DNA of 64,000 bases from Candidatus Omnitrophota bacterium. Lineage in GTDB: Bacteria; Omnitrophota; Gorgyraeia; Gygaellales; Profunditerraquicolaceae. The notes beneath the pieces are model-generated. The model worked only from the letters and a program-made list of their open reading frames with translations. It had not been told where the DNA came from and searched no databases. This document shows, one piece after another, positions 56,752 to 63,401 of this stretch; the first letter of the stretch is position 1, and every line of letters begins with the position of its first letter. The stretch covers positions 32,185 to 96,184 of the forward strand of contig JBEKSD010000003.1 in NCBI GenBank assembly GCA_049517335.1. Reading direction: 5' to 3'. The translations under genes were made by a program, and so were the position numbers.

Positions 56752-56776
56752 ATTTATCCTCTTAATATATAATAAG

Positions 56777-56849
56777 TGGAGCTGAGGGGGATTGAACCCC
56801 TGACCCCTTGCATGCCATGCAAGTGCTCTCCCAGCTGAGCTACAGCCCC
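56777..56849 (-). tRNA. tRNA-Ala (anticodon GGC)
   Basis: The manually folded RNA is GGGGCUGUAGCUCAGCUGGGAGAGC-ACUUGCAUGGCAUGCAAG-...-GGUUCAAUCCCCUCAGCUCCA. It has a G3:U70 pair, the anticodon loop AUGGCAU and no encoded CCA. Confidence 0.85.
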
Positions 56850-56912
56850 GAAATTAATCTATTGACCTTTGTTATTTTAGAATATAAAATAAGCTCCGTC
56901 AATCTTAATCTT

Positions 56913-56995
56913 GCCGAGGTGGTGGAATGGCATACACGTCGGTCTCAAAAACCGATGAGTTCACGCTCGTGAGGGTTCAACTCCCTCCCTCGGCA
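56913..56995 (+). tRNA. tRNA-Leu (anticodon CAA), type II with a long variable arm
   Basis: The acceptor stem is GCCGAGG/CCUCGGC. The anticodon arm is UCGGU-CUCAAAA-ACCGA. The T-arm is GAGGG-UUCAACU-CCCUC. The RNA is 83 nt. Confidence 0.85.
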
Positions 56996-57015
56996 TTATC
57001 TTTTTCTCTCCTCGT

Positions 57016-58101
57016 CTATAAATCTCCATTTTTGCCTTTCTTTGGCATAACTTTTGGCATAAGACCGGTATCTATTTTTGTTATCTCTAATCCCCGTGCC
57101 ACATTCTCCGGCGTAGCGTGTGCGTAATATTTAAAAATAGTTGCGCTATCCTTATGCCCTGTTATTGCCTTTACCACTTCCACATTGGCTGTATTATCTA
57201 AAATGTTAGTTACTACCCAATGCCTAAATATATGGTTAGTGATATTCTTTTTTATGTCTAGCTCCTTACAGGCACGCTTTACATAATTTAATAACAGGTC
57301 TTTCCCTATAAAATCTGTTCCTTTATGGAATGGCGGGTAGAGCAAACCATCGGGCTTATATTTCTTCATCTTCTTCAGGAGGATTATGTGTTCATTAAAA
57401 ACCATACAATCCTGATCCGTTAATTTTGCTGGTCTTGGCTCTGTTTTAGCATTTCTGATATACACAATCTTGCTGGCTAAATCCACATCAGAAATGAGCA
57501 TTTTCCTAAACTCACTCCTTCGCCATCCTCTAGTAATAACGAAATATATCCAAGCGTAGAAGTAAGGTTTATTCTTATAAAACCATTTAAGAATCTTTAA
57601 CCGTTCTTCCTGAGTAGGCAGAATCCAAACTTTCTTCTCAAAAGGAAAACTCCTTATTTCCTTGGGGTCAAACTTTGTAACCAGTCTTTTATTTAATGCG
57701 CTCTTGCCTATTTCCTTCAGATAATCAAGGTCTCTATTTATGCCTGATTTTGACCTTCCCTCATCGTGTTTACTGTTTTTGTAGTCGTTAAGTAGGCTTT
57801 CTGAATAATCTTCCATTGATTGTCTTGACCGCTTCTGAAGAAATATATCAAAGTGATGCACTGTCTCCAGAAATACTTCTCTCGTAGCATCAGAGGGTCT
57901 CTTGCTTTCTAAAACTTGTAAGGCAAAATCCTTGAAAGCAGTATCTTTAGTTAATATCCCCCCAAGTTCCCGCCTCCCAGCTTCATCCTTGGCATCTTTT
58001 TTCCCAGGATATTTGCTTTTGGGGATAGTGGCAAATTTCTGCTTACTATCAACCATCCACCAAATACGCCAACTATTTTTCCGTGAAACTACTCCAGCCA
58101 T
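57016..58101 (-). CDS. int: tyrosine-type site-specific integrase
   Basis: The C-terminal catalytic motifs HIFRHWVVT (HxxR) and GHKDSATIFKYYAH (catalytic Tyr) are present. The gene is adjacent to the tRNA. Confidence 0.85.
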   Translation of the reverse strand: MAGVVSRKNSWRIWWMVDSKQKFATIPKSKYPGKKDAKDEAGRRELGGILTKDTAFKDFALQVLESKRPSDATREVFLETVHHFDIFLQKRSRQSMEDYSESLLNDYKNSKHDEGRSKSGINRDLDYLKEIGKSALNKRLVTKFDPKEIRSFPFEKKVWILPTQEERLKILKWFYKNKPYFYAWIYFVITRGWRRSEFRKMLISDVDLASKIVYIRNAKTEPRPAKLTDQDCMVFNEHIILLKKMKKYKPDGLLYPPFHKGTDFIGKDLLLNYVKRACKELDIKKNITNHIFRHWVVTNILDNTANVEVVKAITGHKDSATIFKYYAHATPENVARGLEITKIDTGLMPKVMPKKGKNGDL

Positions 58102-58105
58102 AAGT

Positions 58106-58270
58106 TTATTGCTTGCCGTCCTTTTTCATTTTACTTAATACTTCAGCTAAGTCATATCTGTGATTTCTCCCAATTACGAGAGCAGGAATTATTCCCTTCC
58201 TCCTGTAATAATCAACCATCGCTGGGGAAATCTTTAATTCCTTTGCCAATTCTTCCTTATCAATAAGCAT
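58106..58270 (-). CDS. xis: excisionase/AlpA-like HTH DNA-binding protein (54 aa; not in the ORF track)
   Basis: Manual translation gives MLIDKEELAKELKISPAMVDYYRRKGIIPALVIGRNHRYDLAEVLSKMKKDGKQ*. It lies directly upstream of int. Confidence 0.65.
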   Translation of the reverse strand: MLIDKEELAKELKISPAMVDYYRRKGIIPALVIGRNHRYDLAEVLSKMKKDGKQ

Positions 58271-58273
58271 TTT

Positions 58274-58849
58274 TTAACCCTCCTGTTTTACCAAAATTCG
58301 CTTTCCTAATTGCCTGTTCTTTTTCCTAATTCCACTGTATCGCAAATAATACCCCCCTGTTGCTCTCGGTCTTTTATCTTTACTTCCAAGATGCCTCCCA
58401 AGCTTAATCCCATCTCTTTTTGCTCTTTCTAAACCACTGATTACCCTACTCCTGATAATTTCCCTCTCCAACTCGCCAAAAACTCCCAAGAGTTGCCAAA
58501 ATGCTTTAGACACAGGGTCATCTGCCTTAGCGGTATCAATATTGTCCGTAACAGATACTAACCTAATTTTCCTATTCCTAAATTCTTGGAATAAATTCAA
58601 GAGGTGTGATAGGCTGCGGGCTATGCGGTCTAATTTATAGATTACAATAACATCGAATTTCTTATTCCTCATATCAATTAAAAGCTGATTTAATTGCGGT
58701 CTTGATTCTTTGGCGCCGCTAACGCCAACGTCAACATATTCCCTAAAGACCTTTATCTTATGCTCACGACAGAAATCCCTAGGTGGCAATAGCTGTGTTT
58801 CAGCAACCTGTTTGCCTGTAGAGACTCTGCCATAAATTGCTCCCAACAT
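58274..58849 (-). CDS. serine recombinase (resolvase/invertase family)
   Basis: AIYGRVSTGKQ is the catalytic Ser motif, inside the resolvase N-terminal domain. Confidence 0.8.
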   Translation of the reverse strand: MLGAIYGRVSTGKQVAETQLLPPRDFCREHKIKVFREYVDVGVSGAKESRPQLNQLLIDMRNKKFDVIVIYKLDRIARSLSHLLNLFQEFRNRKIRLVSVTDNIDTAKADDPVSKAFWQLLGVFGELEREIIRSRVISGLERAKRDGIKLGRHLGSKDKRPRATGGYYLRYSGIRKKNRQLGKRILVKQEG

Positions 58850-59280: not shown

Positions 59281-59309
59281 AAAATAAAAACCCAGTCTTA
59301 AAGACTGGG
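59281..59309 (-). terminator. rho-independent terminator downstream of the 59343-61274 gene pair
   Basis: The stem cccagtct/agactggg is followed on the minus-strand RNA by UUUUUAUUUU. Confidence 0.55.
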
Positions 59310-59342
59310 TATAAAAATTGATTTTAGTATTATACTTAGTTC

Positions 59343-59927
59343 TTAATCGTATTTCTTACTATAAACAATCTCCTTGATTGTCTTAATTGTTCTATGATAT
59401 TTACGTGATAGCCAATCAATAGCATATGAAGGTTTATCTCCTCTTTTCCTCAGTTTCTTAAATTCTGCCCTAATCTTTCTTTTATACTCAAAATAGTCAA
59501 TATTTTTAAGGGCTCCGTATTTGAATTTTCTTCCTTTTAATGATTTTTTGATTTCAGGCAAATAATCTCTTATATCTCCTGAATTTGCCCATTCGGGGAT
59601 AGATAAATTAATTTCTGCATCTTTACCTTTTGATTCCACTTTGAGCCCTTTAAGAACTGGTTTATTACCCCTGAAACCTTGAAGCCCCCATTTTAAACAA
59701 AGCCGACTCATAGCAAAAAATGCAATCATATATTTTCTTTTTCTTAGATGATTAAGATTTAAATCCTCTCCGGCTATCTTCTTTAATTCTGACAAGTCTT
59801 TTTGAAATTCGGGTTTGGACTCTAACTCTCTTAGTTTAGCCTGAAGTCTTCTAACATATGGAAGGTAAATGATTTTAGGCGGGCAATTCCTATTAGCTAA
59901 TTCTTTTAACGCTTCTTCCTTTTTCAT
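59343..59927 (-). CDS. hypothetical highly basic protein (island cargo)
   Basis: 194 aa and K/R-rich. No motif was recognised. Confidence 0.35.
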   Translation of the reverse strand: MKKEEALKELANRNCPPKIIYLPYVRRLQAKLRELESKPEFQKDLSELKKIAGEDLNLNHLRKRKYMIAFFAMSRLCLKWGLQGFRGNKPVLKGLKVESKGKDAEINLSIPEWANSGDIRDYLPEIKKSLKGRKFKYGALKNIDYFEYKRKIRAEFKKLRKRGDKPSYAIDWLSRKYHRTIKTIKEIVYSKKYD

Positions 59928-59936
59928 AATGTATAT

Positions 59937-61274
59937 TTACGACTTATTTTTTCTTTGTTTCTTTTTTAATTGCTTAATTCTGTATTGCTCTGCTTCTACT
60001 ATTTCTTTTGCATATGTAACCATTTTATCGTATTCTTTCTTTCCTTTCGCCTTATTAACGAATAATGATAAATCCTTAACACCTTGTTCCATATCATAAA
60101 ATTTATAACCTATAATGCCCATTGCAAATAAGAAAGCAATTTCATTTTTATTCTCCTGATATCGCTGATTAAAGAATTCCAGGAGTTGGGGTATATATAC
60201 ATCAATTACAGTAAAAGATATGACCTTCTTATACCAAAATAATGCCCTATCATAGTTCTTTTCCAATAGCATAAAAAAGGCATTATTGAGGAAAACCACT
60301 GGGTGTTCTTTTTCAATCTCGCTTGCTTTAGCAGTATACCCTTTGGCTTTATTTAAATCTCCCAAGAAATATTCTAATCTTGCCAATTGGATATAAACAC
60401 GGAAATGATTTATCGGAAGCCGCAGTAGCTCTATGAAACATTGCTTAGCCACTCTATATTCTTTTTTTTCAATCAGCTCTTCTCCTATCAATATGTATAA
60501 TTCGCTGATGATTACGTTAATTCTGCCTTCAATAAGAGGTTTAAAGGTATCGGGTTTCATAGCTGCCAACATCTGTTGTAGACCGTTAAATAATTTTAAC
60601 GCATCGCGCAACCTATTATCAGTAAACAGATGTATTCCAAAAATGAAAATCCCAGCTTCGACAAAGTTATCAGCAACCTTTATCTCTTCAAATAATGTGT
60701 TGTCAATGTTGAGTATCCAATCACGAGTTCCAGCAATCAAAGCTAAATCGGCATTAAACAGCAACATCTTATTTTTTAACCACTGATTTAGCCTATAAGT
60801 ATAATTTAAGCTGAAGCTAACGACATCTTTACCTTCCTTTGTTTCAACGAAAGCGCTGCCCCAAATAATTAAATCCACTCCTTGGTTCTCACAATATTGA
60901 ACCGCTTCTTCACGTTTATTAATAATATCGGAAGCTATATTAATTATTTTCACTTCCTTAGAAATATTAAAATTATCAAGCTTAATTCTAAGCTTTTCTA
61001 ATACTTTTTCGAAATGTAATTTTGACTTATCATCTGTTTTAATGCAGAAAATCAATGTGTATTTATTGGTAGGCAAAATAAATCTTCCGCTTTTACAGAA
61101 CCAAAACGCCATCCATAAAAGAATTAAGGCAGGAGCAATATATAAGACGAAAGGAATTTTGATTATGTAGCATATTAACGAAATTAACAAAATACCACCC
61201 AATAACCCACCAATGGTTTTGGGTTCTTTCTTTAATGAACCTAAAGCTAAATCAAATAGTCCTTTCATACCCAT
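59937..61274 (-). CDS. membrane-anchored (2 TM) protein with an alpha/beta region and a C-terminal TPR-like helical domain (island cargo)
   Basis: Hydrophobic helices lie at ~20-60. The alternating beta/alpha pattern is LIFCIKT...VKIINIAS...DLIIWGS. The C-terminus is helical and repeat-like. Confidence 0.35.
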   Translation of the reverse strand: MGMKGLFDLALGSLKKEPKTIGGLLGGILLISLICYIIKIPFVLYIAPALILLWMAFWFCKSGRFILPTNKYTLIFCIKTDDKSKLHFEKVLEKLRIKLDNFNISKEVKIINIASDIINKREEAVQYCENQGVDLIIWGSAFVETKEGKDVVSFSLNYTYRLNQWLKNKMLLFNADLALIAGTRDWILNIDNTLFEEIKVADNFVEAGIFIFGIHLFTDNRLRDALKLFNGLQQMLAAMKPDTFKPLIEGRINVIISELYILIGEELIEKKEYRVAKQCFIELLRLPINHFRVYIQLARLEYFLGDLNKAKGYTAKASEIEKEHPVVFLNNAFFMLLEKNYDRALFWYKKVISFTVIDVYIPQLLEFFNQRYQENKNEIAFLFAMGIIGYKFYDMEQGVKDLSLFVNKAKGKKEYDKMVTYAKEIVEAEQYRIKQLKKKQRKNKS

Positions 61275-61433: not shown

Positions 61434-61940
61434 CTATTCCCAACCTTTTATCTTATAGTCAAAGGTTATTTTCTTAATCTGCGGGTTGCTTTCATATTTA
61501 TTAAGGCACCGCTTGTCCATCTTGAAGCCTTTTTGCCTATTTATTCTACACTGTCTTTCAAATTCTACCCAAGGCAATAGATACATCCGTATATTATTAG
61601 CATCATCAATTGAATCAACTACGACAGCAAGATAAGGCTCACAATCAAAGATTTTGCAGGCAGATAATACTTCTCTTTTGCTTGGGATGGTTACATTGCT
61701 ATAAGCTTGCCCTCTTTCACGGGTGCGGGCTTTAACACTTATGCCTAGCCTTTCTTTTGTCTTCTTGTTATACGCTATTAAGTCAATTCCAATATAATCA
61801 ACATTAACAACCTCATAGCCATACTTAGATAGCCAATACATCAGCATAGCTTCGCCAAAGTCGCCAGCAATCTTACTATGCCTTGAGCTCTTTCTTATTT
61901 CCATGTAAAGGATTGTATCACCTACTTTAGTGGGTGTCAA
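61434..61940 (-). CDS. small PD-(D/E)xK-fold nuclease-like protein (Hjc/Mrr-cat-like core)
   Basis: The pattern G..GE..L...L.K.G..V is followed by GIDLIAY (Asp) and ISVKAR (x-V-K), which matches the restriction-endonuclease-like core. The assignment rests on the motif pattern only. Confidence 0.4.
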   Translation of the reverse strand: MTPTKVGDTILYMEIRKSSRHSKIAGDFGEAMLMYWLSKYGYEVVNVDYIGIDLIAYNKKTKERLGISVKARTRERGQAYSNVTIPSKREVLSACKIFDCEPYLAVVVDSIDDANNIRMYLLPWVEFERQCRINRQKGFKMDKRCLNKYESNPQIKKITFDYKIKGWE

Positions 61941-61972
61941 TATGTGGAATTTTATGGGAGAATTGGAGCGTG

Positions 61973-62182
61973 GAAAATATTAATGCTGGATTTGGAAAAC
62001 ACTTAAAAGACCTACGCAGAAAAAAGAAGATAACTCAAGAGGAGCTTGCGGAATTGGCTAACTTGGAATACAAATACATCCAGCGCCTTGAGGGTAAGAA
62101 GCCTTCTTCTCCTACCTTAAACACCTTAGAGAAACTTGCCAAAGCCTTCAGTATAACTCCTTCACAATTACTTAAATTTTAA
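61973..62182 (+). CDS. XRE-family (Cro/C1-type) HTH transcriptional regulator
   Basis: The HTH reads LKDLRRKKKITQEELAELANLEYKYIQRLE. The probable GTG start is at 61973. The ORF track begins at the ATG at 61934, which overlaps the divergent gene. Confidence 0.65.
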   Translation, partial: ENINAGFGKHLKDLRRKKKITQEELAELANLEYKYIQRLEGKKPSSPTLNTLEKLAKAFSITPSQLLKF

Positions 62183-62186
62183 TTAC

Positions 62187-63401
62187 TTATTTCTCTTTAT
62201 CCTGTAATTTTGATAAAGAAACGGATTTTTTGGATTCAATCTTTAAAAAACCTTTAATTTTAGTCATTATCTTCTTATCCCATCTTGATTCATTAACGGC
62301 TTTTTCAACTGCATAGGTGTCTATATCAGCGACTTCATCCCACTTGCCGGCTTCCTTTAACGCTTTTGATAATTCTTCCCGTTCTTCGCTTCCCTTAGGA
62401 GGACAGGAAACTTTCTGTTTTTCGGCAACTTTAAGCTTATTATTGTTGCCTATGATAATGCTGGATTTTTCTTCTTCGGCATACTGGATAACCGCTTCTT
62501 TTACCTTATCTATTTCCTCATCTATTTTGTCAATCTCTCCCTGTTGCTCACGCTTCTTAGCTACAAGCTTAGCGAAAGTATTTACAAGCTTTACGCCGCT
62601 GTCTTTTAGGTATTCATTTACAGGTAGAGCTTCCACTTTATAGAGGTGCTTTCTCTTGGGGCAAAGGTCAGGATATACGCACCATTCGCAAAGGCTACTT
62701 TCATTCGGTAGGAATTCCTCTGTAGCTTCAATCTTATCAATTAGGACTGCCGTATCATTCTTTAGCTGCTCCAATTGTTTATCAGTCCTCACAGAGGACA
62801 TTTCCTTGTCAAAAACCACATAATGCCAGATTAACTTGACCTTATTGACATCATTCCAAGTGTCGCTTATGCCAATTTGATACAGAGCAAGCTGTCTATC
62901 CTCATCAAAATGCGCCTGTCCGGGCAAGGATCCGGAAGTCTTATAATCATGTATCTCATAAGTATCGTCTTGTGCTTGGGCTAGCCTATCTATGTAACCC
63001 CTAAGCTTATATTTACCGTCCCCATTTAAGTCAATCAAAACCTCCCTCTCAAGACCTAAGACCCTGCTCTGGTCAAAGGGAGAATAGCGCTTATAATAAT
63101 CCTCAATGCATTTCCTGCCTATGTTTTTGTAGTCCTCAGCGGTTCTATCTTTCTTAGTAACAATAATAGTATCGTTATATTCCTTATCCCATTGGCTTTC
63201 ATAATAACCCAATAGCTCCTTTAAGGAATATGTCTTGCATTTAAGGTCTTTATAGAGTTTCTGCATGGTTTCGTGGAAACGAGAACCCATAAATGCCTCA
63301 ATGCCTTCTTGTTCACGCTCAATCTTATCTATGTAGGAAAACTTATACCGGAGAGGACAGGATTCAAAACTATTTAATCTGGAATGGGAATATATAGGCA
63401 T
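62187..63401 (-). CDS. Cas4-like / RecB-family PD-(D/E)xK exonuclease with a 4-Cys Fe-S motif and a KE-rich C-terminal tail
   Basis: The N-terminus reads YSHSRLNSFESCPLRYKFSYID. The RecB motif is IHDYKTSG. The C-terminal Cys triad reads LCEWCVYPDLCP. Confidence 0.6.
   Translation of the reverse strand: MPIYSHSRLNSFESCPLRYKFSYIDKIEREQEGIEAFMGSRFHETMQKLYKDLKCKTYSLKELLGYYESQWDKEYNDTIIVTKKDRTAEDYKNIGRKCIEDYYKRYSPFDQSRVLGLEREVLIDLNGDGKYKLRGYIDRLAQAQDDTYEIHDYKTSGSLPGQAHFDEDRQLALYQIGISDTWNDVNKVKLIWHYVVFDKEMSSVRTDKQLEQLKNDTAVLIDKIEATEEFLPNESSLCEWCVYPDLCPKRKHLYKVEALPVNEYLKDSGVKLVNTFAKLVAKKREQQGEIDKIDEEIDKVKEAVIQYAEEEKSSIIIGNNNKLKVAEKQKVSCPPKGSEEREELSKALKEAGKWDEVADIDTYAVEKAVNESRWDKKIMTKIKGFLKIESKKSVSLSKLQDKEK

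Follow-up and report, generated by a model that had tools for sequence, protein, structure and literature searches.

A divergent gene pair inside a tRNA-Leu island of an Omnitrophota MAG, contained in the 64,000-nt stretch of DNA analysed here (the window), probably represents the repressor, operator and promoter cassette of a mobile element driving a variable cargo slot, which at this locus is occupied by a solitary nuclease gene. The pair would accordingly consist of a regulator and its cargo and not of two co-evolved partners, a view that follows from the cassette being kept while the gene in the slot varies, and from a nuclease family that lacks an HTH partner. A sequence-only reading had proposed a dedicated controller/nuclease, toxin-antitoxin or abortive-infection pair. 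That interpretation of regulator plus nuclease as a toxin-antitoxin or restriction module is corrected here, the XRE clade being found beside many unrelated divergent genes. The locus joins known kinds, with an uncharacterised nuclease family of a known superfamily placed under a mobile-element repressor switch, and it points to mobile elements of a little-studied phylum in which repressor, operator and promoter are kept as a cassette while the adjoining cargo slot can be exchanged.

The edge of the island is marked by a tRNA-Leu(CAA) gene (56912-56996, + strand; ARAGORN and Rfam), the presumed integration site, just past which the GC content falls from about 0.43 to about 0.35. A tRNA-Ala(GGC) gene on the - strand lies 62 nt from the tRNA-Leu(CAA) gene, the two occupying 56776-56996 just before the integrase. 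The integration module (57016-58849, - strand), delineated from the ORFs and from precomputed Pfam matches on an identical contig, comprises a tyrosine integrase (57016-58101; Phage_integrase), a MerR-like excisionase (58106-58270; MerR, weak) and a small serine resolvase (58274-58849; Resolvase), the last lying directly upstream of the other two. No repeat of the tRNA-Leu region of at least 12 nt that could mark a second att site was found up to position 66706, and the far boundary of the island therefore lies further on.

Three genes of a putative cargo unit follow on the - strand, the first being the nuclease gene, the second encoding a 445-aa protein (59937-61274) that has membrane helices at its N-terminus and TPR matches too weak to pass the Pfam cut-offs, and the third a 194-aa protein (59343-59927) with no family match in Pfam, PADLOC, NCBIfam or PHROGs. 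A terminator-like hairpin with a 9-bp stem followed by a T-run (59290-59310, - strand; consensus match only) is located 3' of the 194-aa gene and suggests that the three genes may form one transcription unit ended at this point. The 445-aa and 194-aa proteins had no homolog in any other of the approximately 110 fetched nuclease-family or XRE loci, so that the present data give no support to a system of three genes conserved as a set. The XRE gene is the sole + strand gene in that part of the island and converges on a gene for a 404-aa PDDEXK_1 (RecB/Cas4-like) phage-type exonuclease (62187-63401, - strand; Pfam PDDEXK_1 2.6e-32, PHROG 69 exonuclease 2.9e-30), the C-terminal third of which has a weak match to DUF7307 ('Pam3 gp33-like'). 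A phage-type HNH endonuclease gene lies just past the end of the window (415-1182 of L001). As the sequence-only reading had stated, no methyltransferase gene is nearby: none was detected in the 50-66.7 kb interval, in which the available sequence extends to window-equivalent position 66706.

The nuclease-like and XRE ORFs are both real genes and lie where they were first placed, and the motifs originally quoted for the former (G..GE, GIDLIAY and ISVKAR) are all present in the protein. Their starts had to be revised. The 168 aa first given for the nuclease correspond to the maximal ORF, read from a TTG; because the N-terminus of all homologs reads M-x-I-x-K-S-S-R-H-S-K and the identical protein has 156 aa in both the NCBI and JGI gene calls, the gene was assigned to 61434-61904 (- strand), encoding 156 aa. 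The XRE protein, previously given as 69-82 aa, most likely has 70 aa and starts at GTG 61970 (61970-62182, + strand), judging from a GGAG located 9 nt 5' of this codon, from a Logan gene call of 70 aa and from 221 homologs of 70-71 aa. Direct reading of the sequence with the corrected starts leaves a divergent control region of 65 nt between the two start codons (61905-61969), compared with an overlap of 7 nt between the maximal ORFs. The two genes are thus divergent and close, as had been proposed, but their starts are neither within about 35 nt of each other nor overlapping.

Within this control region, a sigma-70-like promoter candidate is directed toward the nuclease (61912-61940, - strand), with a -35 hexamer TTGACA (61940-61935), a 17-nt spacer and a TG-extended -10 hexamer TACAAT (61917-61912); it matches 11 of the 12 hexamer positions plus the TG and is the best in the 56.9-64 kb interval. 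The nuclease ATG begins 7 nt past the -10 hexamer, a distance from which the mRNA is deduced to be probably leaderless or nearly so. The promoter spacer contains a candidate 18-bp palindromic operator, CACCTAC-TTTA-GTGGGTG (61919-61936), which overlaps 2 nt of the -35 hexamer and whose 3' end lies 33 nt before the XRE start. Palindromic sites of this type, with up to two mismatches, occur once in the window against 0.19 expected by chance. The corresponding pattern, CACCYAMTWTMRYRGGTG (CACCYAC-N4-GTRGGTG), was present in all 19 XRE-clade loci and in none of 95 other fetched loci, and the palindrome between the two starts that the sequence-only reading had raised is found, in the promoter spacer. 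Alignments of the DNA upstream of XRE genes were near-invariant from the -10 hexamer to the XRE start, with no similarity left of the -10, and the -10 variants across loci (TACAAT, TAGTAT, TATAAT and TAATAT) all keep TAnnnT. Conservation of the control region follows XRE and not the nuclease. The candidate operator of this very tightly conserved 70-aa repressor can now be tested. Candidates for a rightward promoter, serving XRE, were discarded, their hexamers being weak or not conserved and none convincing, and Rfam revealed no RNA family in the control region. At one XRE locus (L107, 4936-4990) the main palindrome is followed, about 20 nt downstream, by an additional TAGGTG half-site, which hints that some elements may have a second operator.

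The XRE protein, presumed repressor of the leftward promoter, scored above the Pfam cut-offs for HTH_26 (47.9 bits, cut-off 22; 1.6e-12), HTH_3 (40.9 bits, cut-off 23; 2.1e-10) and HTH_19, in agreement with its initial description as an XRE-type HTH protein, and its best PADLOC matches were capH, together with HTH_VI (E 2.6e-13), and Control_protein (E 3.8e-11). No sensor domain is present in its 70 aa. Its clade is unusually tight, with 221 clusters sharing 73-90% identity, several of which are labelled Omnitrophota; a search of IMG/VR found no member of the clade. Six clusters were looked up and led to 17 loci of about seven distinct kinds, the XRE-clade loci inspected amounting to 19, about seven of them distinct, out of the 221 clusters. 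The layout common to the looked-up loci is an integrase or recombinase and a variable run of genes pointing away from XRE. Outside the window, the gene divergent from XRE was found to encode a 118-aa, 153-aa zf-tcix, 343-aa, 106-aa, 77-aa, 130-aa or 464-aa metallo-beta-lactamase/RMMBL protein; the slot is therefore known with at least eight kinds of gene counting the nuclease, at least seven of them unrelated genes found elsewhere. The nuclease fills it only in the window and, presumably, in the contig of its nearest homolog, described below. The other side of XRE is taken up in sister loci by a convergent block, often with a 520-aa terminase-large-subunit-like protein, ParB-methyltransferase fusions and PDDEXK_1, and some XRE-clade loci instead have HEPN_AbiV or OLD-like genes in this block.

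The part that is constant among elements measures about 290 bp and consists of the XRE gene, the palindrome and the leftward promoter (61905-62182 in the window; L098-L114), with both flanks varying. One sister element (L109, 108-8769) appears to be only about 8.7 kb long and to run from an integrase to GTP cyclohydrolase I, with host trmE at the flank; it has a terminase-like gene, ParB and a methyltransferase, is devoid of capsid genes and resembles a phage satellite.

An AlphaFold2 model of the nuclease, built on 52 homologs, had a mean pLDDT of 90.5 and a pTM of 0.86, and a Foldseek search of the PDB with this model gave Archaeoglobus Hjc (2wcw) as the best match (E 4e-5). On these two lines of evidence the 156-aa protein is predicted to adopt the PD-(D/E)xK nuclease fold and to be a member of that superfamily, which bears out the restriction-endonuclease-like core originally recognized from its motifs. 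The catalytic set of the PD-(D/E)xK superfamily comprises a Glu on helix 1, an Asp on strand 2 and (D/E)-x-K on strand 3. The candidate catalytic residues lie at the places expected for the superfamily: helix 1 carries E18, strand 2 opens with D41 and strand 3 contains S56-V-K58. Among 213 full-length family members, E18 is conserved in 206, D41 in 209, S56 in 193 (with Thr in 10 more) and K58 in 198, so that E18, D41 and K58 are present in 93-98%; E31, D36 and D97 are also conserved. A Ser thus stands family-wide in place of the usual acidic residue of (D/E)xK. Enzymes of the BisI family are active with QxK, which also has a non-acidic residue at the (D/E) position (PMC11347163), and in Cfr10I the Glu is displaced from the third strand to the second core helix (PMC3424549). 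In the nuclease family this helix lacks a conserved Glu, and this, together with the Ser, means that nuclease activity is not assured. The conserved E31, D36 and D97 might substitute for the absent acidic residue. The protein is most likely a metal-dependent DNA endonuclease that would act through E18, D41 and K58, probably as a homodimer.

Three consensus residues of the family are replaced in the window nuclease: H37 by Y, K78 by E and W127 by F. Departures at these near-invariant residues are in part common to it and its three nearest relatives, with Y or F at position 37 and F or W at position 127, the K78 to E change being that of the window protein. One close relative (P0003) has T-V-R where others have S-V-K.

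Sequence-level searches retrieved little. At E up to 1, the only Pfam families matched were UPF0102 and DUF6860, and UPF0102 (PF02021), the only sequence-level relative of the nuclease, reached 19.9 bits against a gathering cut-off of 23.6; the NCBIfam YraN models scored 16-17 bits against cut-offs of 124-172. Searches of PDB sequences with the single sequence and with a profile returned only spurious matches to designed proteins, and nothing significant was found in PADLOC, PHROGs or NCBIfam. PADLOC-DB v2 gave no family at E up to 1 for the nuclease, the 445-aa or the 194-aa protein. A search of viral folds in BFVD produced only generic small PD-(D/E)xK matches, with TM of about 0.5.

Homologs of the nuclease fall into at least 806 clusters, and an exhaustive profile search yielded 561 clusters (50% identity) at an E-value limit of 1e-3 and 372 at the stricter limit of 1e-10, nearly all of about 156 aa. 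Relatives were recovered in 164 pattern-matched stretches from 185,579 species genomes, spread over many bacterial phyla and DPANN archaea. This is a compact family with an unusual SxK site, found in many bacterial phyla and some DPANN archaea and covered by neither a Pfam nor an NCBIfam model. IMG/VR contained a single hit among 2.9 million contigs, and neither 72,556 plasmids nor 50,697 phage genomes gave a match in tblastn with a typical family member. Across 83 non-redundant nuclease loci, no neighbour cluster recurred in more than four, and Pfam analysis of 76 upstream and 78 downstream neighbours detected no family in more than three members. Genes for DXP synthase, Mur ligase, tRNA synthetase, recombinases and transposases were seen next to family members, and housekeeping genes were common among the neighbours. 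An XRE-like ORF, searched with an iterated XRE model, was located within 1.5 kb of the nuclease in just 4 of the 83 loci and was divergent and adjacent only in the window; the family is solitary. The sequence-only reading had held that homologs never co-occurring with an HTH partner would speak against a module, and this is largely what the family displays.

The nearest homolog, at 70% identity on a 3.1-kb contig, again has a divergent 70-aa HTH gene, located 115 nt away, from which we infer that the pair may travel together in a small sub-clade; the genes beyond the HTH gene differ from those of the window. No XRE or operator was detected in the little sequence available around the homologs at 59% and 58% identity, and a metagenome scan of the close nuclease clade gave seven loci, none with XRE. 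A further locus (L002) is the same DNA as the window and carries no evolutionary signal. No conserved flanking DNA motif was found around the family genes. An exact inverted repeat of at least 11 nt between the two 200-nt flanks occurred in only 4 of about 80 loci, so that an interpretation of the nuclease gene as a mini-transposon was left without support and was dropped.

In the arrangement that we consider probable, a dimer of XRE would bind the 18-bp palindrome filling the spacer between the -35 and -10 hexamers of the leftward promoter, and the bound protein would block RNA polymerase and keep the divergent slot silent; upon loss of the repressor, the slot would be transcribed. At this locus it would hold a three-gene operon headed by the nuclease, a horizontally acquired and normally solitary gene product of the Hjc/YraN structural class. 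The cassette is most likely a backbone feature shared by phage-like or satellite-like integrative elements of one family, found mainly in Omnitrophota.

The dedicated two-gene module, in which XRE would be a controller or antitoxin-like repressor matched to a toxic nuclease in a restriction-, toxin-antitoxin- or abortive-infection-like system, draws on the divergent arrangement, the 65-nt spacing and the palindrome in the promoter, on the matches of XRE to PADLOC capH, HTH_VI and Control_protein, and on the 70% homolog, where a divergent 70-aa HTH gene is retained while other genes lie beyond it. It nevertheless appears very unlikely to us, since 79 of the 83 nuclease loci are without an XRE-like gene within 1.5 kb, the same XRE and operator stand elsewhere beside at least seven unrelated genes, the genes are divergent whereas type II toxin-antitoxin pairs and C/R operons are co-transcribed, a methyltransferase is absent and the nuclease has no PADLOC hit. 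We regard as unlikely to a somewhat lesser degree that the nuclease serves the element itself as a Holliday-junction or branched-DNA resolvase, expressed upon derepression with the recombinase, excisionase and integrase arm. Hjc resolvases are indeed its best structural matches, its gene is co-oriented with those of the resolvase, excisionase and integrase, and viral proteins include small Hjc-like folds; the family is nonetheless near-absent from viral data (one hit in IMG/VR, none in the phage genomes and no PHROG), unrelated genes fill the slot in sister elements, most family members reside among chromosomal housekeeping genes, and a terminator-like hairpin stands between the cargo unit and the recombinase arm.

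A different objection concerns the protein and not its regulation, namely that it could be a catalytically dead DNA-binding protein of PD-(D/E)xK fold for which the label 'nuclease' would be misleading. The Ser that replaces Asp/Glu at (D/E)xK in more than 90% of members, the lack of a compensating Glu conserved on the second core helix and the T-V-R of the close relative P0003 are all compatible with such a loss. On the other hand, the retention of E18, D41 and K58 in nearly all of the 213 members, accompanied by E31, D36 and D97, and the tolerance of a non-acidic residue in the active QxK enzymes of the BisI family (PMC11347163) and in Cfr10I (PMC3424549) make catalytic death a highly improbable explanation. 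It is also conceivable, if speculative and on balance unlikely, that the XRE cassette acts as a portable switch that keeps diverse toxic or defensive effectors silent in Omnitrophota mobile elements, and that the SxK nuclease is an unrecognised single-gene DNA-targeting defence enzyme. The nuclease would then work alone or with the 445-aa membrane/TPR and 194-aa proteins, one possibility being a modification-dependent nuclease like NhoI and BisI.

Comparison with characterised enzymes shows a nuclease that resembles Hjc, YraN and NhoI structurally and, by profile score and motif, falls outside all three families. Identity to Hjc (PDB 2wcw, 1gef) is only 20-24% over the aligned part; Hjc has an E-D-E-K tetrad, whereas the window nuclease has Ser for the second acidic residue and about 50 extra residues at the C-terminus. 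Hjc is moreover a core archaeal gene, while the present family is bacterial and patchy, and no match to Hjc (PF01870) was obtained by Pfam scan at E up to 1 or by profile search of PDB sequences. YraN/UPF0102 (PF02021) proteins carry ExK in contrast to the SxK seen here, and the score of the nuclease against this family stays below the gathering cut-off (19.9 against 23.6 bits); the YraN-like chain 3fov has 102 residues, compared with 156 aa. YraN has recently been linked, together with ComM, to the resolution of transformation D-loops (bioRxiv 10.1101/2024.02.06.579203), and no ComM linkage was seen for the nuclease family. UPF0102 has a well-conserved genomic context (PMC3424549), but the nuclease family is sporadic and without such a context. 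The BisI family groups modification-dependent restriction enzymes such as NhoI and Eco15I, which have a PD-QxK motif and recognize 5-methylcytosine within GCNGC (PMC11347163). The nuclease differs from them in its SxK, and neither NhoI nor Eco15I appeared among the profile matches to PDB sequences at E up to 10. The small size that had been remarked upon is real, at 156 aa, but not anomalous: NhoI, a BisI-family enzyme without a methyltransferase partner, has a solved chain of 155 residues (PMC11347163).

Controller (C) proteins share several features with XRE, being small XRE-type HTH proteins with a palindromic operator in the promoter region by a nuclease gene, and the palindromic operator upstream of the C gene has its counterpart in the candidate site at 61919-61936. 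The C and R genes of restriction-modification systems normally form a C-then-R operon. Here, by contrast, the genes are divergent, and neither the linkage to a methyltransferase and an R gene that goes with C-protein systems nor co-transcription is found. C-boxes are paired operators, whereas one palindrome is present at this locus, and, unlike C proteins, the same XRE regulator occurs beside many non-nuclease genes. The pair likewise does not qualify as a type II toxin-antitoxin system, its genes being divergent, XRE accompanying the nuclease in few loci and the partners of XRE varying. CapH of CBASS and the CI/Cro regions of phages with moron slots similarly combine a small HTH regulator and an operator by a variable slot near an integrase. 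CapH has a CapP-like protease partner, which is missing here, and, compared with CapH- or CI-type regulators, XRE has no sensor or cleavage domain. By analogy, the closest counterpart would be a mobile-element repressor beside a variable cargo slot, as in defence regulators or phage immunity regions with morons.

A locus of different composition was encountered among the nuclease-family relatives (L004, 635-3400; also L005 and L006), where a family member lies beside an N6/N4 methyltransferase and a 298-aa protein in which an N-terminal XRE HTH is fused to a region with PD...EVK-like motifs. From these motifs, the 298-aa protein may combine a restriction enzyme and its controller domain in one chain.
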